This document shows positions 2,451-19,869 of a DNA stretch of 32,849 nucleotides, piece after piece. The stretch comes from a virus (Duplodnaviria > Heunggongvirae > Uroviricota > Caudoviricetes), in the IMG/VR virus record IMGVR_UViG_2778261588_000008, positions 1-32,849 of that record; one strand, given 5' to 3'. The notes beneath the pieces are model-generated. The model searched no databases, had not been told where the DNA came from, and worked only from the letters and a program-made list of their open reading frames with translations. Each line of letters starts with the position of its first letter. The first letter of the stretch is position 1. The position numbers and the translations under genes are program-made.

Positions 2451-3278
2451 TTATTTAATCTGGATAAATGGTGTATTGGCACCACTGGTCATGTATTGCG
2501 GCAGTGTACCGTTCCACTTGTTGATGGCTTCCAGCTCCATGACGCCTGGGTTCTGGCGTAGAGCTTCGCCGCGTAAACGAATGGCATCGGCTTCTGCCTG
2601 GGCTTTTGTTCGAATGGCATCAGCCTGTCCGGCAGCTTCCGCACGTAGCATGTTGGCCTCCGCTTCACGTTGCTTGACTTCCTGCTCGCGCTGCAGGGTT
2701 TTCTGGTTTGCCGTGACTTTGGCGTTAATGCTGTCGATAACGGTTGGAGGGTATTCCGGTTTACCTACATAAGAGAGGCTCATTACCTGAATGCCGATGG
2801 GTGTCATCTCTTCCTGAATGTCTTTAAGTGCGGCATCCAGTAGTTCAGACTTGCCACCGTCGATAAATTTGTCAGTGGTCATTTTGCTGGCCAGCCGATT
2901 GAGTGCGTCGGCAATTTTCTGGCGCAGGTCAGTGTCGGTAATGTCATCCACGCCTTTGCGGTAGGTCTGAAACACCGTGGTAACTTTGGATGGATCAACT
3001 TTGTAGGCCACACCGATGTGATAGCCGATGGTTGTACCGTCACTCATCTGGAAACTGAACGGTTCATCGTAGGTCTTCATTTGTTTGAAGGTGGGGAAGA
3101 TATAAACTTCAGTATTCCAGCCAGTCCAGTAGCGACCAACACCGACCACCTCACCGACACCTTTGTCGTCGCCTAGTTTATTTACCTTGATGCCAACATT
3201 ACCTGGTTCAACGCGATCGCAACCGACAAGGCCAATAGTCGGCAGAACAATGGCTAAAGCAAAAATAATTTTTTTCAT
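2451..3278 (-). CDS. SPFH/band-7 (stomatin/prohibitin/HflK-C-like) lipoprotein
   Basis: 275 aa; N-terminal signal with lipobox LVGC; central SPFH-like region followed by Ala/Glu/Arg/Gln-rich coiled coil (REQEVKQREAEANMLRAEAAGQADAIRTKAQAEADAIRLRGEA) typical of band-7 proteins; SD AAGGA 7 nt before ATG; start overlaps stop of upstream small membrane ORF. Confidence 0.8.
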   Translation of the reverse strand: MKKIIFALAIVLPTIGLVGCDRVEPGNVGIKVNKLGDDKGVGEVVGVGRYWTGWNTEVYIFPTFKQMKTYDEPFSFQMSDGTTIGYHIGVAYKVDPSKVTTVFQTYRKGVDDITDTDLRQKIADALNRLASKMTTDKFIDGGKSELLDAALKDIQEEMTPIGIQVMSLSYVGKPEYPPTVIDSINAKVTANQKTLQREQEVKQREAEANMLRAEAAGQADAIRTKAQAEADAIRLRGEALRQNPGVMELEAINKWNGTLPQYMTSGANTPFIQIK

Positions 3279-11950: not shown

Positions 11951-12193
11951 ATGACTTTTACGCCTGAACAATTACGTAAACAGGCACAGGAAATGTTACG
12001 ACAGGCGGAACAACTGGAAAAGACAGGCGTAACAAAAGATGCCATTCGTAAGGATATGGTGCCAGCGCTCAGGGAACTGATGCAGGCGAAACACCGTGCA
12101 CAAAAAGCAGTGGATGAGCTGGTGGATTGTGTGGCAGAGCTGGAAACCAAAGTTGGAAAGTTCGAAAAACTGGTGCAGGAGGTACTGCGCTGA
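11951..12193 (+). CDS. hypothetical coiled-coil protein (80 aa)
   Basis: ATG at 11951 (the ORF-track start at 11936 is TTG inside the dnaB stop); highly charged helical sequence. Confidence 0.45.
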   Translation: MTFTPEQLRKQAQEMLRQAEQLEKTGVTKDAIRKDMVPALRELMQAKHRAQKAVDELVDCVAELETKVGKFEKLVQEVLR

Positions 12194-12540
12194 TGCGTGA
12201 TATGTACGACGTTTTAGATCGTTGGGGGGCCTGGGCTGCAGCAGATAACAGTGGTGTGGACTGGCAGCCGATAGCAGCAGGCTTCAAGGGGCTTTTACCA
12301 CGCGGTAAAAAGTCACGTCTCCAGTGTGATGATGATGAGGGGCTCATGATCGATGGGTGCGTAGCTAGATTAAGAAAGTACAAACCAGAAGAGTATGAGT
12401 TAGTTATAGCCCATTTTGTGGTAGGGATTTCATTGCGAGCCATTGCTAAGAAGAGAAAGTGTTCGGATGGGACTATCAGGAAAGAGTTGCAAACATCGCT
12501 TGGTTTCATTGAAGGCATTGTTTGCACTCTTGCCTGTTAA
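12193..12540 (+). CDS. putative late-gene antiterminator, small Q-like (QuuD-type)
   Basis: 115 aa from ATG 12193, overlapping upstream stop. MRD..VL.RWGAWAA N-terminus and C-terminal HTH-like segment recalled as typical of small Q-type antiterminators; position after replication genes and before lysis fits Q. Homology not verified. Confidence 0.4.
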   Translation: MRDMYDVLDRWGAWAAADNSGVDWQPIAAGFKGLLPRGKKSRLQCDDDEGLMIDGCVARLRKYKPEEYELVIAHFVVGISLRAIAKKRKCSDGTIRKELQTSLGFIEGIVCTLAC

Positions 12541-12561
12541 CTATTCTTAACTGTCTTCTAG

Positions 12562-13446
12562 TTATATTGGGCGCTTTGAATTCGATTTAAAGCGTCTTCC
12601 ACTTATTCCAGAAACCCAAATGTCTTCCTCAAGAAAGTCAAGAAGGGCTTTTATTTCTTTTTTTGATGAAGGCATGACAATTTTCTCAACACCACCAACT
12701 ATTATGGTTTGTAAGGGGAATTTAACTTTAGCAGCTTCGGATTTAAACTTTGACATATTTGGGAGTGTTAGCATCCCAGTCTGATTTATTAGTGTTACTT
12801 TATTTCTTATCACTGTATCTGCAACGGATTTTAGATCAAAACCTTGGGGAGTAGAAAATACACTAAGTTGACTAAATGCATTAAGTTCTTGGTCAGTAGC
12901 AGCAGAAAAATAGGACGACATGTCAAAAATACTTCTTAGATTAAAGAAACTCTTAAATCGTATTGTATCATTGATAATTATTGCAACTAGTTTATCATCA
13001 ACATTAAAACCGATGCTATTAGCTTTACTAAAGGTAGTTTTGCTTGCACAAAGCTTTCCAAAGAATGATTTTGAGGTATCTAAGATTTGTTTTTTGTTGA
13101 AAGTTTGTAGTGCAATAATATTGGGGTTTGCTGGCGCGTCAACACCAACAAATAATGCTTTAATATAACCAATATCAATTTGGCTAGGATCCCAGATAGG
13201 CACGGCGGTAGGCCTATTGACTGCGTCAATCAGGCGTGCAGAATCAGTAAAGTTTTGTATTTCAAAACACTCACTATGTTTTGGTGTATAACCGGCATAG
13301 AATGGTATCATATTGTTATGATGACTTTCAAAATATTGACGCTGTTGTTGGAAAATGGCCGTAACAGAAGTACTTGCTGTTGCATCAAGTTCGACTCTAA
13401 CAATTCTCGTTGCAATTGTATTATCTATTACTGCAAAAAGTGCCAT
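12562..13446 (-). CDS. hypothetical protein (294 aa), second gene of counter-oriented AT-rich cassette
   Basis: ATG at 13446 with AAAGGA SD; 6 nt downstream of the membrane-protein stop; visibly AT-rich codon usage unlike flanking phage genes; no catalytic motif recognised. Confidence 0.7.
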   Translation of the reverse strand: MALFAVIDNTIATRIVRVELDATASTSVTAIFQQQRQYFESHHNNMIPFYAGYTPKHSECFEIQNFTDSARLIDAVNRPTAVPIWDPSQIDIGYIKALFVGVDAPANPNIIALQTFNKKQILDTSKSFFGKLCASKTTFSKANSIGFNVDDKLVAIIINDTIRFKSFFNLRSIFDMSSYFSAATDQELNAFSQLSVFSTPQGFDLKSVADTVIRNKVTLINQTGMLTLPNMSKFKSEAAKVKFPLQTIIVGGVEKIVMPSSKKEIKALLDFLEEDIWVSGISGRRFKSNSKRPI

Positions 13447-13451
13447 GGTTA

Positions 13452-13970
13452 TTATCCTTTAACATGTAGAAATGTGTAGTCTGTTAATTGAATAACTGTA
13501 AATTTGATATCTTTAATATCAGTAATGACTGATTTAGAAATCAATACAAAACCTACGCCGGTGTCATCTTCAGCTTCGTAAAATTTATAACCGATAAGTG
13601 ACAATACTGGGTTAAAGTTATAGTTCTCGGAAAAGCTGATGTAAAATAACAATGACAAATAAAAGAATAACGCATATGCTTTATTTTCAGCAATAGAATC
13701 TGTTCCTAGGAGAGGGAATAAATAGCTTAAGAAATAATTAGTTACTTCTTTGTTAGCGGGAGAAACTGAACTAATATTTTTTGTCAGAGGTTCAAGTTGT
13801 TTCTCAGCATATTGAATCAGGCCTATTGCTAATAACCAACTTGCTATGCCAACGCATAAGCTATATTGCATCAGCCAAACCGTATCTTTTACATATCCAA
13901 TAAAAAATAGAGTTGCGCAAACAGGTGCAATTGAGCTGGCTGTTAATAATAAGCGTGCTAATTTGTTCAT
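13452..13970 (-). CDS. integral membrane protein (~4 TM helices), first gene of counter-oriented cassette
   Basis: 172-173 aa (two adjacent ATGs, AAAGGA SD); four hydrophobic segments then a ~60-aa soluble C-terminus; AT-rich. Confidence 0.7.
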   Translation of the reverse strand: MNKLARLLLTASSIAPVCATLFFIGYVKDTVWLMQYSLCVGIASWLLAIGLIQYAEKQLEPLTKNISSVSPANKEVTNYFLSYLFPLLGTDSIAENKAYALFFYLSLLFYISFSENYNFNPVLSLIGYKFYEAEDDTGVGFVLISKSVITDIKDIKFTVIQLTDYTFLHVKG

Positions 13971-14135
13971 CATGATATCCTTTGTACTGTTTATGCATAC
14001 AGCACTTTACATCATGTACTCCAAAGTATCTATCTTGTGAAGAATCTTACACTAAATACTACAGAAAAGTTAACGCGTACGCAAAAAGTATTATATCGTG
14101 TTAAGAGTGGTTACTTCGCCACACAGCTTAAACCC

Positions 14136-14154
14136 GCTCGACAGCGAGTTTTTT
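14136..14154 (+). terminator. weak intrinsic terminator-like hairpin
   Basis: GCUCG-ACAG-CGAG(U) stem then U6; plus-strand orientation. Confidence 0.3.
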
Positions 14155-14278
14155 AGTGTCCGAAAAGCGGTACAGGACGTTAAATGCGCTGGTGGTTGCG
14201 AATACAGGTCTTTCAACTTGCTGGCTTTTTCGACAAGAGTTATTGGTATGTCACGTTAACCAGAAAAGGGAAAAAGAC

Positions 14279-14476
14279 ATGCTAAAACAGCAGGATATGA
14301 CCGAAACAGCCAGAGTGGTGTTTAATGAGTTAAGCGTCACCGAACCGGCGACCGTCGGGGAGATTGCACAGAATACTTACCTTTCACGCGAACGCTGCCA
14401 GTTAATACTGACCCAGCTTGTTATGGCGGGTCTGGCAGATTATCAGTTCGGTTGTTACAGACGCCTTTCGCAGTGA
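14279..14476 (+). CDS. small putative winged-helix DNA-binding protein (65 aa)
   Basis: ATG 14279 with AAGGGA SD (the ORF-track start at 14156 is GTG with no SD); followed by a terminator overlapping its stop. Confidence 0.45.
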   Translation: MLKQQDMTETARVVFNELSVTEPATVGEIAQNTYLSRERCQLILTQLVMAGLADYQFGCYRRLSQ

Positions 14477-14486
14477 AGGCTTTTTT
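14463..14486 (+). terminator. intrinsic terminator
   Basis: GCCTT-TCGCAGTG-AAGGC hairpin followed by T6. Confidence 0.5.
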
Positions 14487-14626
14487 ATTTGTGGTAATGG
14501 GCGGCTGGTGGGTGTTAGCGGCACCTGCCAGCCATCTGCTCATGCGTTGGGGTCACAAGCAAACCTCAGGCCCATCTGCTTTGCGCAAAAGCGGAATGAG
14601 CCTATCAGAGAAGTGCTTATTGATCT

Positions 14627-15673
14627 ATGGCTAATACTGTAAAAATATCCAGTTGTGAGTTAATCAACGCTGATTGCCTGAAATTTATCCGGACCTTACC
14701 GGAAAACTCTGTCGATCTGATAGTCACAGACCCGCCATACTTTAAAGTGAAGCCCGAGGGCTGGGATAACCAGTGGAAGGGCGATGATGATTACCTGCAA
14801 TGGCTGGACCAGTGTCTGGCTCAGTTCTGGCGGGTATTAAAACCTGCCGGAAGTCTTTACCTGTTCTGTGGTCATCGCCTGGCATCTGACACCGAACTCA
14901 TGATGCGTGAACGTTTTAATGTGCTGAACCACATTATCTGGGCGAAGCCGTCCGGACGCTGGAATGGGTGCAACAAGGAAAGCCTGCGGGCGTATTTCCC
15001 GGCAACAGAGCGCATTCTGTTTGCCGAACATTATCAGGGGCCATATCAGCCAAAAAATGACGGCTATGCGGCAAAAGGGCGCGAGCTTAAGCAGCACGTA
15101 ATGGCCCCGCTGATTTCTTACTTCCGTGATGCGCGTGAATCACTGGGGATAACGTCAAAACAGATAGCTGAAGCCACCGGAAAGAAAAACATGGCTTCGC
15201 ACTGGTTTGGTACCAGTCAGTGGCAGTTACCGAATGAGGCCGATTACAGTAAACTACAGGCGCTGTTTGCACGTGTGGCGGCAGAAAAACACCAGCGCGG
15301 TGAACTGGAGCAGCCACACCACCAGCTGGTCAGCACATACAGCGAACTGAACCGGCAATATGCCAGCCTGCTGGAGGAATACAAATCACTGCGGCGTTAT
15401 TTTTCCGTATCGGCTGTTGTTCCTTATACGGATGTCTGGACGCACAAGCCCGTGCAGTTTTATCCGGGTAAGCATCCCTGTGAAAAACCGGCGGATATGT
15501 TGCGTCAGATAATTACTGCCAGCAGCCGTCCAGGCGATTTGGTCGCAGATTTTTTTATGGGGTCGGGGTCGACAATAAAAGCGGCACTGTCGCTGGGACG
15601 CAGGGCGATTGGCGTGGAACTGGAAGAGGAACGTTTTAATCAGACGGCCAGAGAAATAACGAAAGATTTTTAA
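14627..15673 (+). CDS. orphan DNA N6-adenine methyltransferase (beta-class, N6_N4 MTase family)
   Basis: 348 aa; motif IV DPPY near N-terminus (LIVTDPPYF) and AdoMet motif I F.GSGST near C-terminus (FFMGSGSTI): circularly permuted beta-class order; no adjacent restriction endonuclease gene. Confidence 0.85.
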   Translation: MANTVKISSCELINADCLKFIRTLPENSVDLIVTDPPYFKVKPEGWDNQWKGDDDYLQWLDQCLAQFWRVLKPAGSLYLFCGHRLASDTELMMRERFNVLNHIIWAKPSGRWNGCNKESLRAYFPATERILFAEHYQGPYQPKNDGYAAKGRELKQHVMAPLISYFRDARESLGITSKQIAEATGKKNMASHWFGTSQWQLPNEADYSKLQALFARVAAEKHQRGELEQPHHQLVSTYSELNRQYASLLEEYKSLRRYFSVSAVVPYTDVWTHKPVQFYPGKHPCEKPADMLRQIITASSRPGDLVADFFMGSGSTIKAALSLGRRAIGVELEEERFNQTAREITKDF

Positions 15674-15890
15674 TTCAGTGATGATATAAGTTGTATATTT
15701 CTGATACAGATGTATACACATATTTAAAACTGAACACCAAATATATTTTTGATGTCTGAAAAACTGTCGTTAGTATTCTGACTGGTCCGGAAGACGGTTA
15801 TTTTTGTGTTCACAGGGGCGTTACTATCGTCTGAAGGACCAGTGCTGGCTTTCCTGGTAATTCGTGTGATTCCGGAAGCCAGTACAGTAT

Positions 15891-15965
<75 letters not shown>

Positions 15966-16330
15966 GCATTTGAAACAAGCCTTATTGTATTGCGGCACTG
16001 GCGTATTTTTTATTACGTGGGAGCAGGTTGTTTTGAAAAAGCATTTTGTTCTCTGGCTATGATTTGAGGCCAGGTGTAGCCTCAGTGCTGATTTTTTTAC
16101 GACAGCAGAATGGTGCATTATCGGTGGAGATTTTGTATTTCCTGGCAGGGTCGGTGATGCATCATTCTGGTGTTGTAAATCGCACCAAAGAGGCGCACCT
16201 CAGTGCGAGGGTGGTTTAAAGAGTCGGTTTAGCGGGAAACCACAGTATCCATACAGCACGGAATACTTCGGGAGGCACCCGACGCCTCGGTTTAATAACA
16301 ATTAAAAAATTCATCCCTTGCATTGACCAA

Positions 16331-16353
16331 CCGCCATATCTGGCGGTTTTTTT
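16331..16353 (+). terminator. intrinsic terminator in the tRNA-to-lysis non-coding region
   Basis: CCGCCA-TATC-TGGCGG hairpin followed by T7. Confidence 0.6.
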
Positions 16354-16679
16354 ATTCCTTTCTCAGGACGAAAAAAGACACGAGCATCCAGGAATACTCG
16401 TGGGACAACGTCCTTTGGATAGCAATTTGCGAGAGGGTGAAAAGTAGCGCGGTCGTCGGATTAAGACCGCGGGACAAAGTCCATGAAGAATAATAAGTAT
16501 TGGCCCCCTTCCGGGGACATGTTCATACTACTAAGCTTCAGAAGTGGTTTAAATCCTCAAATTAACCTTAATTTCCGATAAGTCTTATTTCATTTCTTTG
16601 CGCCACATCTGGCGCGCATCAAATAACGCCACGCAAAGAGCATCTGCGGATGCCGGTGCTTTTGACGGGGTGTTTTTAC

Positions 16680-16701
16680 GGGCCGCTGGTGGCCCTTTTT
16701 T
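16680..16701 (+). terminator. terminator/attenuator-like hairpin immediately upstream of the lysis operon
   Basis: GGGCC-GCTGGT-GGCCC hairpin then TTTTTTATTT, ending 19 nt before the first lysis-gene ATG. Confidence 0.45.
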
Positions 16702-16719
16702 ATTTACAGGAGAAAAAGT

Positions 16720-17112
16720 ATGTCTGAACCCTTGTCCGGTTCCGGCACGGCTGCGGCGCTCGGCGGGGCGACGGTATTCGGGCTGTTTACTGGAACGGAT
16801 TTCGGGATTGTGTTTGGTGCGTTCGCCGGGGCGTTGTTTGTGGCAACGATGCCGCAGAAGATTTCAGCCTGGCGTGTGGCGGCACATTTTCTGGTGTCGT
16901 TCATTGTTGGTGTACTGGGGGCGCGTGTACTGTCAGCCTGGATTGCATCAAAAACAGGTTATGACGGTACATCTGCGGATGCACTGTGTGCGGTGCTGGT
17001 GGCGGTGGTGTCGGTGAAGACTCTGTCGTTCATCCACCAGCAGGATATCGCATCACTGGTGTCCGGCCTGTTCTCGCGCCTGCGGGGCGGAGGAGGCGGC
17101 AATGTTAAGTAA
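16720..17112 (+). CDS. putative holin (multi-TM membrane protein)
   Basis: 130 aa; AGGAG SD; 3-4 Gly/Ala-rich hydrophobic helices, charged C-terminus; first gene of cluster ending in endolysin. Confidence 0.55.
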   Translation: MSEPLSGSGTAAALGGATVFGLFTGTDFGIVFGAFAGALFVATMPQKISAWRVAAHFLVSFIVGVLGARVLSAWIASKTGYDGTSADALCAVLVAVVSVKTLSFIHQQDIASLVSGLFSRLRGGGGGNVK

Positions 17113-19518: not shown

Positions 19519-19869
19519 ATGCCATCACGAATACCCCGCGCCTGTCGTAAGCGTGGATGTGCAGGCACAACAACAGACAGTTCGGGTTACTGCGATAAGC
19601 ATCGCGGTGAAGGCTGGGTGCAGCACCAGCGCGGACTGAGCCGCCACCAGCGTGGCTATGGCTCAAAATGGACGGTGATTCGTGCCCGTATTCTGAAGCG
19701 CGATAAAGGTCTGTGTCAGTTGTGTCTGCGTGTCGGTGTGGTGAGCGAGGCGAAAACTGTCGACCACATCATCCCGAAAGCGCATGGCGGAACAGACGCA
19801 AACAGCAACCTGCAGAGTCTGTGCTGGCCCTGCCACAAAGAGAAAACAGCGCGCGAACGAATCAAGTGA
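19519..19869 (+). CDS. HNH endonuclease (terminase-associated)
   Basis: 116 aa; Cys-rich N-terminus, HNH core DHIIPKAHGG...N.NLQSLCWPCHKEKT; AAGGAG SD; directly upstream of terminase genes as in HK97-like cos phages. Confidence 0.8.
   Translation: MPSRIPRACRKRGCAGTTTDSSGYCDKHRGEGWVQHQRGLSRHQRGYGSKWTVIRARILKRDKGLCQLCLRVGVVSEAKTVDHIIPKAHGGTDANSNLQSLCWPCHKEKTARERIK

Follow-up and report, generated by a model that had tools for sequence, protein, structure and literature searches.

A predicted non-specific adenine methylase of the M.EcoGII family in a phiP27-like prophage and a conserved structured RNA leader preceding its gene

We analysed a viral DNA of 32,849 nucleotides (IMG/VR record IMGVR_UViG_2778261588_000008, positions 1 to 32,849; this whole stretch is hereafter the window), which contains a DNA methylase gene at 14627-15673. 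By sequence comparison, the window is a lambdoid prophage similar to phiP27 without stx, and the methylase is cargo of its late operon and an orthologue-level member of the M.EcoGII family. This family is known and characterised, and the methylase is in that respect an ordinary finding. Probably, it is a non-specific N6-adenine methylase that is expressed in dependence on the antiterminator Q and protects the progeny DNA. The new element of the locus is a structured RNA leader, which was found only in the 5' regions of M.EcoGII-family methylase genes in all assessable cases.

The methylase adds an allele to a family that is commercially available as a reagent and in wide use for chromatin footprinting. 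In our view, the leader RNA in the first place, and a small winged-helix partner gene in the second, are the parts of the locus that deserve attention.

The methylase gene and its product

A first-pass annotation, made from the sequence alone, described the gene as an orphan beta-class N6-adenine methyltransferase in which motif IV precedes motif I. The coordinates, the motifs and the Pfam match agree with the class and the motif order. The relevant features are as follows (AdoMet, S-adenosylmethionine; TRD, target recognition domain).

14627..15673, + strand: methylase open reading frame (ORF), ATG start, 348 amino acid residues; M.EcoGII-family beta-class N6-adenine methyltransferase
14729..14740, + strand: catalytic motif IV, DPPY, residues 35-38; invariant in 31 homologues
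15029..15403, + strand: linker, predicted helical TRD and linker, residues 135-259; boundaries from the M.EcoGII model (PMC11551740)
15554..15574, + strand: AdoMet-binding motif I, F-M-G-S-G-S-T, residues 310-316

The motif order is that of the beta class, with motif IV in the N-terminal part, the TRD in the centre and the AdoMet motif I (FxGxG) in the C-terminal part. Positions F310, G312, S313, G314 and S315 of motif I are invariant in the alignment of the 31 homologues, and the full-length ORF retains all the invariant columns of the family, including DPPY, FxGSG and HPCEKP. The Pfam profile PF01555 (N6_N4_Mtase, curated cut-off 26.7 bits) matched residues 29-340 with 150.2 bits (E 1.1e-43) over profile positions 1-219 of 221; between its two halves, the methylase exceeds the profile by about 90 residues. 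The PADLOC profile MTase_II (E 1.9e-152) and methyltransferase families of PHROGs also matched. Among the proteins in the PDB, 8urk/9c3u ('Methyltransferase'), M.RsrI, M.MboIIA and CcrM aligned at residues ~8-147 and ~270-343 (E 1e-24 to 1e-15). The PDB sequence search gave no alignment for residues ~148-269 (linker and TRD), and in the best PDB matches the spacing between the catalytic halves is ~85-95 residues shorter than in the methylase.

In the methylase, 271 residues separate Y38 from F310. The earlier estimate of about 250 residues was slightly low; the middle part is indeed long, but its reading as a large insert, presumably the TRD, did not survive comparison with the published AlphaFold-multimer model of M.EcoGII. 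That model consists of a Rossmann core (1-134 and 260-349), a TRD of four helices containing a helix-turn-helix (HTH) at 160-237, and a long charged linker, part of which forms two helices (PMC11551740). The methylase is collinear with the model, and the region of about 135-259 is 77-82% identical. By this comparison, the 271-residue stretch is the normal rest of the catalytic half (to ~134), the charged linker and the predicted helical HTH-containing TRD (~135-259), and the motif-X region, with no insertion. A review of beta-class enzymes also describes the TRD region of M.EcoGII and its orthologues as not unusual in size (PMC7544214).

Our own AlphaFold model placed helices at residues 147-173, 177-184, 190-194, 204-223 and 231-259 with low to moderate confidence (predicted local distance difference test score (pLDDT) of 63.6 on average; below 50 for 99-155 and 254-286). 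The input for this model was shallow (31 homologues, all at least 76% identical). The model was therefore kept out of fold searches because of its low confidence, and the domain boundaries were taken from the published M.EcoGII model.

Comparison with M.EcoGII and predicted specificity

BLASTP alignment of the methylase (348 residues) with M.EcoGII (349 residues) gave 293 identical residues out of 345 (~85%). The M.EcoGII sequence was a machine-read PDF table from the supplement of PMC11551740 that includes reading errors (NHHIWA, TKVPQYY and RRRAIG), so that the identity is slightly underestimated. Both one-residue gaps in the alignment coincide with such errors; thus, there are no real indels between the two proteins. 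The methylase is also 85% identical, without gaps, to the enzyme of phage 1720a-02, and 92% identical to L24 of phiP27.

The identities with M.EcoGII are distributed over all the domains. The N-terminal core (residues 1-134) has 126 identical residues out of 134, the TRD has 64 out of 78, and the linker segments on its two sides have 20 out of 25 and 17 out of 22, with no gaps. At the reported dimer interface, all 25 residues at 116-140 and 12 of the 14 residues at 97-110 are identical. One of the two differences at 97-110 is an optical character recognition error of the reference; the other, N98, is the state of the ancestral reconstruction Anc291. Residue 179 is Q, as in M.EcoGII.

At the DNA level, the 'DNA methylase' genes of phiP27 and many Stx2-converting phages share 83-92% identity with this gene. 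Of 5426 complete E. coli genomes, 1887 contained DNA with at least 80% identity, in at most five copies per genome, and the best match was 98%. The methylase family spans the Enterobacterales at 66-96% identity.

M.EcoGII, a protein of 349 residues, comes from a very large family that resides in a well-defined E. coli prophage; phage 1720a-02 encodes a very similar methyltransferase (PMC5778455). It methylates adenine in any DNA context, and is thus sequence-non-specific (PMC5778455); it also acts on RNA and DNA:RNA hybrids (PMC5778455, PMC7544214) and is far slower on RNA than on DNA (Supplementary data, PMC11551740). Reconstructed ancestors of the family are also reported to be non-site-specific (SUPREM paper, PMC11551740), and EspM, a natural homologue, is described as a non-specific adenine methyltransferase (PMC13540299). 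Because of the ~85% identity to M.EcoGII, and because these relatives are reported to be non-specific, the best prediction for the methylase is methylation of any adenine. The specificity, which the first-pass annotation held to be unreadable from the sequence, can thus be predicted by homology.

Alternatively, the methylase might be a sequence-specific orphan adenine methyltransferase, in which the substitutions in the TRD and the linkers have created a defined site; its function might then be epigenetic or regulatory, or it might protect against a single restriction system. Its TRD differs from that of M.EcoGII at 14 of 78 positions and its linkers at 10 of 47, the NCBI family name is 'site-specific DNA-methyltransferase', and the related enzyme M.PflMI is site-specific with a predicted structure that is similar overall (SUPREM paper, PMC11551740). 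However, M.PflMI lacks the charged linker, which is present in the methylase without indels; relatives that are more divergent (the ancestral reconstructions and EspM) are reported to be non-specific; and the NCBI name is generic and describes no tested property. We consider a defined recognition site quite unlikely.

A conserved RNA leader upstream of the methylase gene

A small gene for a winged-helix protein, described below, lies upstream of the methylase gene. In the alignment, the 150-nt spacer between the two genes was more conserved than either gene. It contains the following elements.

14494..14596, + strand: structured RNA leader of 103 nt; a three-way junction (P1 enclosing P2 and P3) and then the hairpin P4 (RNAalifold consensus)
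14597..14626, + strand: linker from the leader to the start codon; contains a nearly invariant UGAUCU, which ends 1 nt before the AUG

Helix P1 (UGGGC/GCCCA) encloses P2, a long hairpin (GGCUGG-U-GGGUG ... CACCY-G-CCAGCC), and P3, a second hairpin whose closing pair is C-G, U-A, A-U or U-G. P4 (GCUUU/AAAGC) is located 3' of the junction. Measured against a Salmonella reference, the leader had a median nucleotide identity of 86% and the methylase coding sequence one of 71%; in 23 of 24 comparisons, the leader was ahead.

Covariation demonstrates the structure of the leader. In a MAFFT alignment that was not fitted to the structure (A5), 88% of the cells were paired, compared with 25-42% when the partners were slid; 14 pairs were compensatory, compared with 0-6 after sliding, and none of 500 shuffles reached the observed values. 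In the model-fitted alignment (A6, 59 sequences), 91% of the cells were paired, and 17 of the 29 pairs were compensatory. The structure was assigned to the mRNA strand because G-U pairs recur in it (for example, three positions have them in 7, 6 and 7 sequences), which would turn into C-A mismatches if the opposite strand were read.

In about 90% of the sequences, P3 contains a tandem C-A/A-C internal loop (A6 columns 50/71 and 51/70; about 14545-14546 with 14560-14561 in the window), whereas a few divergent members have two Watson-Crick pairs in its place. The tandem mismatch may be a conserved non-canonical motif.

A covariance model was built from 34 sequences and used to search 0.91 Mb. 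It gave 59 matches, one per locus, each on the + strand with its end about 30 nt short of the methylase start; the window leader scored 80.7 bits. A methylase-less locus (L166) gave no leader match with the model. A conserved pattern of 19 bases had 118 matches in viral contigs, and a methylase gene starts 30-130 nt downstream in all of the 117 assessable cases; a winged-helix gene lies upstream in 103 of these. The leader is also present in loci without the small gene.

The loci of Xenorhabdus and Photorhabdus gave no significant leader match, even with the filters off (the best was a degenerate match at L131 4921-5004, E 1.5). In these loci (L131 and L133-L162), the methylase has 66-69% protein identity, the spacer is 76-101 nt long with at best a degenerate remnant of the 5' half of the leader, and the small winged-helix gene, 39-50% identical, is retained. 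A variant leader may be present in them.

Searches of Rfam 15 matched the tRNA described below alone at E<=1 for 13900-16800 and gave only chance-level matches of the miRNA type (12-17 bits) at E<=10 for 14440-14660. A search of the motif-discovery literature, which was not exhaustive, found no description of an RNA motif 5' of DNA methylase genes of enterobacterial prophages.

Two other explanations of the spacer conservation were considered. A peptide-coding spacer was rejected: in most genera, the frame opened by a conserved AUG is cut off after seven codons (MGGWWVL-stop), and it is disrupted by single-base indels. A DNA operator of the winged-helix protein was disfavoured, as the strand-specific G-U pairs and the compensatory changes favour RNA; DNA binding by this protein may still occur.

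In the window, an AUG inside P1 opens an ORF of 45 codons (14497-14634, + strand; ATGGCTAA), whose stop codon overlaps the methylase start. It is intact in the window and its closest relatives. Given the early stop of this frame in most genera, it is probably not a conserved gene, but it could couple translation in the window.

Possible translational switch

The leader probably controls the expression of the methylase. Minimum-free-energy folds of single sequences (z about -3.3) differ from the junction fold. In the alternative fold, the 5' arm of P3 (GCUCAU) is paired with AUGGGC, while the loop and the 3' arm of P3 (AGGUCA and AAGC) pair with GCUU...UGAUCU. The alternative pairings are kept in 91.5% of the cells versus 28-44% after sliding, and their covariation is no better than that of shuffles. 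In the AUGGGC/GCUCAU helix, all ten variations preserve pairing, and in one locus (L088) a double compensatory change in P1 leaves the alternative helix intact too. No recognisable Shine-Dalgarno sequence was found at the usual distance before the methylase AUG, either in the sequence or in the alignments.

A translational switch that occludes the start codon, as suggested by these pairings, is plausible but unproven. We tentatively propose that the junction RNA of 103 nt is an undescribed cis-regulatory leader, specific to M.EcoGII-family genes, which gates translation of a toxic enzyme by alternating between the junction fold and the alternative fold; we would not be surprised if this proposal failed. 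The input of such a switch could be a small molecule (S-adenosylmethionine and S-adenosylhomocysteine are the obvious guesses), the methylase itself, or the 65-residue winged-helix protein acting as a translational activator similar to Com of phage Mu. If true, this would be a new RNA switch on a biotechnologically important enzyme, of interest to RNA biologists as well as to users of M.EcoGII.

The small winged-helix gene and the absence of an endonuclease

The small gene and a hairpin at its end have the following positions.

14279..14476, + strand: winged-helix gene, 65 amino acid residues; PHROG 331 (phrog_331), RefSeq 'TrmB family transcriptional regulator'
14463..14486, + strand: hairpin over the stop codon of the winged-helix gene and then a T-run; terminator-like (terminator scan)

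The start at 14279 is likely, as it is the one annotated in phiP27, SfV and E. coli RM11911. Substitutions follow the pattern of a coding region: codon positions 1, 2 and 3 have mismatches in fractions of 0.18, 0.11 and 0.29, respectively. The Pfam TrmB profile was below its threshold for the 65-residue protein (17 bits versus a cut-off of 25.6, E 0.0056), profile searches gave no NCBIfam match and no HTH_3 match, and a sequence search of the PDB had no useful match (best E 0.62). The protein was predicted to fold as a winged helix that includes a beta hairpin (pLDDT 88), and its best structural matches are winged helices of the ArsR, MarR and BlaI types.

In all of the 76 close viral loci, the small gene is located 5' of the methylase gene at a nearly fixed distance. 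Among 77 methylase loci from diverse species, it is present in 54 and missing in 23 (30%), with an iterative search included. The winged-helix gene is thus a frequent but dispensable partner of the methylase. Its product may have a regulatory role.

The stem of the hairpin at 14463..14486 varies in a compensated way between genera (e.g., CCTTT/AAGG, CCTCC/GGGGG, TCGCC/GGCGG and CTGCC/GGCAG), and strict terminator criteria identified it in 21 of 56 loci only. The first-pass annotation had noted a small winged-helix-like gene flanked by terminators as a possible controller of the methylase. The gene and the hairpins (scanned at 14136-14149 and 14463-14480) exist, but the proposed controller role is not borne out: the protein is a winged helix and not of the Xre type, the gene is absent from the 23 loci, and M.EcoGII was active when cloned alone (PMC5778455). 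The hairpins on the two sides of the gene fit best with late-operon terminators of the tR' type that are overridden by Q, rather than with the bounds of a separate controller unit.

The methylase is an orphan without a cognate endonuclease, as previously noted. Searches of its neighbours with Pfam, PHROGs, NCBIfam and PADLOC gave no match to a nuclease family, and the DNA from the methylase to the holin contains a tRNA only, with no ORF matching a family. The sole nuclease-type gene is the packaging HNH gene (19519-19869) beside the terminase, 3.8 kb downstream, which is also present in a related methylase-less prophage.

These results bear on the idea that the methylase belongs to a restriction-modification system whose endonuclease was missed and whose C-protein is encoded by the small gene. 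A small gene of the DNA-binding type does lie directly upstream in the same orientation. Yet no neighbour resembles a nuclease, the only candidate is the distant HNH gene that a methylase-less prophage shares, the protein matches neither the Xre type nor HTH_3, nearly a third of the diverse loci have the methylase without it, and in many phages a module of two genes, with no third, is located between Q and the lysis genes. We regard such a system as extremely improbable.

Prophage setting

The following features surround the methylase region.

12193..12540, + strand: antiterminator Q, 115 amino acid residues; Pfam Phage_antitermQ, E 9.4e-46
12562-13446, - strand: Kiwa KwaB, 294 amino acid residues; PADLOC, E 3.9e-148
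13452-13973, - strand: Kiwa KwaA, 173 amino acid residues; PADLOC, E 1.9e-83
14070..14135, + strand: start of the late-leader block; presumed position of pR', inferred
14136..14154, + strand: tR'-like hairpin and U-run (terminator scan)
15891..15965, + strand: tRNA-Gly(TCC); ARAGORN, Rfam tRNA 65.6 bits

The early genes are in the order integrase, SPFH-domain gene, cI-like repressor, cro-like gene, antirepressor, Rha, DnaC-like loader, DnaB helicase and Q. The methylase region is followed by two holins, a GH108 endolysin, the HNH gene with the terminase, portal, protease, capsid and tape measure, and the phage gene set is apparently complete from integrase to tape measure. The cassette itself has the order Q, moron slot (Kiwa), pR'/tR' block, winged-helix gene, RNA leader, methylase, tRNA-Gly and lysis genes. 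Comparable gene orders are found in phiP27, SfV, Ayreon, 1720a-02 and RM11911. The start of Q was set by a 98%-identical annotated gene in E. coli H1827/12. By analogy with other lambdoid phages, Q would govern read-through into the late operon that holds the methylase.

The breakpoints of homology divide this region into blocks. Homology with phages 1720a-02 and phiP27, RM11911 and a further locus (L076) begins at 14070-14093; in phage 1720a-02, the late-leader block starts 8 nt past the Q stop codon. Homology with methylase-less prophages that have Q and Kiwa ends at about 14137-14152: in other E. coli prophages (L166), Q and Kiwa are 98% identical up to ~14150, and the sequence then leads straight to the holin, with no small gene or methylase. 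From these breakpoints, 14070-14150 is a shared core, Kiwa is cargo between Q and the core, and the small gene and the methylase form an optional downstream cassette.

A cargo slot of variable content lies between Q and the late-leader block. In the window, the insert at 12541-14069 contains a complete Kiwa pair on the opposite strand and is A+T-rich (35-42% G+C). The slot holds a gene of the GIY-YIG nuclease family in phiP27 (L001 3208-4437) and a hypothetical gene of 159 residues on the opposite strand in E. coli RM11911 (L003 4892-5371), and is empty in phage 1720a-02; the distance from Q to the small gene varies from 240 to more than 3000 nt among the loci. This slot appears to be a hotspot for defence cargo. 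The SPFH/Band-7 domain gene (2451-3278, - strand) adjoins the integrase. The integrase-side region of lambdoid prophages is a frequent site of lysogenic-conversion or defence cargo.

In 51 of 56 loci, a hairpin with a T-run precedes the small gene by 74-131 nt; its stem sequence differs between genera. The terminator scan gave 12 terminator-like sites in 12400-16800, compared with 4.3 +/- 2.3 expected. Downstream of the methylase, phiP27 carries ileZ-argO and stx2e at the position of the tRNA-Gly. No convincing ORF is present in the roughly 750 nt beyond the tRNA (15891-16719 region, + strand), and three terminator-like hairpins (16064-16085, 16329-16348 and 16680-16695) lie just before the holin.

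The state of the prophage also bears on whether the methylase gene is an inactive remnant in a decaying prophage, which we consider very improbable. M.EcoGII itself was described as unexpressed and as located on a cryptic prophage (PMC5778455), and the tR'-like hairpin of the window is degenerate; against this stand an ORF of full length with every invariant column of the family, a set of phage genes that appears to be complete, and the 80.7 bits reached by the leader RNA with the family model.

Proposed role of the methylase and points that weigh against it

In Stx phages, transcription from pR' is constitutive and is terminated at tR' until Q acts (PMC7547250). M.EcoGII is reported to be silent in the lysogen and harmful on expression (PMC5778455, and the review PMC12707154). 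Because of this paradigm and because of the silence and harm of M.EcoGII, Q-dependent late expression is most likely for the methylase. In the lysogen, transcripts from the late promoter would halt at the tR'-type hairpin or hairpins, and the toxic methylase would not be made, as the lambdoid paradigm and the reported silence of M.EcoGII suggest. On induction, RNA polymerase modified by Q would read through, and the gene order suggests that the methylase would be made together with the lysis and morphogenesis proteins. The leader RNA, by alternative pairing just 5' of a start codon that lacks a Shine-Dalgarno sequence, would probably limit or time translation.

The methylase, probably as a homodimer, would then flip and methylate adenines across the replicating phage DNA before packaging. 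We infer its activity and non-specificity because the 85% identity to M.EcoGII includes an intact catalytic core, dimer interface, linker and TRD. The progeny DNA would thereby be protected in advance against many adenine-sensitive type I, II and III systems of the next host. An anti-restriction role has been proposed for M.EcoGII-type enzymes, with the grade 'appears likely' (PMC5778455, PMC12707154), and is a proposal even for M.EcoGII itself; the protective role suggested in the first-pass annotation coincides with this proposal for the closest characterised relative.

Another possibility is that the main substrate or purpose lies outside anti-restriction: the methylase could act on RNA of the phage or the host, time replication or packaging, or counter a defence that senses unmodified DNA. 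M.EcoGII does methylate RNA and DNA:RNA hybrids, many orphan phage methylases regulate the viral cycle (review PMC12707154), and our literature search found no in vivo anti-restriction test of the M.EcoGII family. On the other hand, M.EcoGII is much slower on RNA than on DNA (PMC11551740); residue 179 is Q as in M.EcoGII, whereas E179 is linked to improved RNA activity in an engineered enzyme; and expression with the late genes just before packaging fits with modification of the progeny DNA. We consider a different main purpose unlikely.

Several points weigh against protection of progeny DNA by a Q-dependent, non-specific methylase. The activity, the non-specificity and the timing of the methylase are all predictions from homology and gene order. 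The TRD departs from that of M.EcoGII at 14 residues out of 78 and the linkers at 10 out of 47, which could give the methylase a different specificity, as the site-specific M.PflMI illustrates; our own structure model, with its mean pLDDT of 63.6, cannot confirm the fold of the TRD, and the machine-read M.EcoGII reference has a few reading errors. The pR' promoter was not located, as a scan of the 14070..14135 block for the sigma-70 consensus gave no match. In the window, the hairpin at 14136-14154 is degenerate, with an interrupted stem and a fold no better than that of shuffles (z -0.46), while the relatives have G+C-rich stems of 8-12 bp at this position; termination in the window prophage may thus be leakier than assumed. 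The literature says of the anti-restriction role no more than that it 'appears likely' (PMC5778455, PMC12707154), and heavy N6-methylation of adenine would expose the DNA to methylation-dependent (type IV) nucleases.

No description of the lambdoid control of a toxic genome-wide methylase was found in the literature searched. The locus offers three conserved elements in this regard: a tR'-type terminator, a winged-helix protein in about 70% of the diverse loci, and a strongly covarying leader RNA.

Comparison with known systems

The closest characterised enzymes are M.EcoGII and M.EcoGI from prophages of E. coli O104:H4 C227-11 (Murray et al. 2018, PMC5778455), which are alike in length, motif order and location in a lambdoid late region. 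Compared with M.EcoGII, the methylase has about 50 substitutions, including 14 in the TRD of 78 residues, and its prophage is phiP27-like without stx. L24 of phiP27, orf48 of SfV and the 'DNA methylase' of Stx2 phages between Q and stx belong to the same module. The module common to these phages and the window consists of Q, a hairpin, the 65-residue gene, the 150-nt spacer and the methylase, followed by tRNA, toxin or lysis genes. In phiP27, a GIY-YIG gene occupies the position of Kiwa, and stx2e follows the tRNAs; the window has neither.

The late leader between pR' and tR' of Stx phages and lambda, including the small RNA StxS (PMC7547250), is similar in that a conserved terminator-like hairpin lies between Q and the late cargo. 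It differs in the type of Q and in the leader sequence, and the leader of the window has no Rfam match.

The solved beta-class enzymes (8urk/9c3u, M.RsrI, M.MboIIA and CcrM) have catalytic halves like those of the methylase, with a shorter spacing. The C-proteins (C.PvuII and C.AhdI) are similar in that a small protein of the DNA-binding type is encoded directly upstream of a methylase in the same orientation. However, they are Xre-type, all-helical HTH proteins that act on C-boxes in restriction-modification operons, while the protein of the window is a winged helix with a beta wing and has no endonuclease nearby.

The mom operon of phage Mu provides, as a lead, the closest functional analogy for the whole module. 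In Mu, the translation of mom is activated by the product of the small upstream gene com, which binds the leader RNA and opens a hairpin covering the mom start. Mom does not belong to the AdoMet methylases, and Com is a zinc-finger protein. Like Mom, which is toxic and silent in lysogens (PMC12707154), the methylase is a modification enzyme of a temperate phage and would be toxic and made late, and in the window a 65-residue gene lies upstream together with a leader able to pair with the start region. Unlike Com, the protein of the window is a winged helix; the enzyme family is different, and the leader is found even where the small gene is missing.

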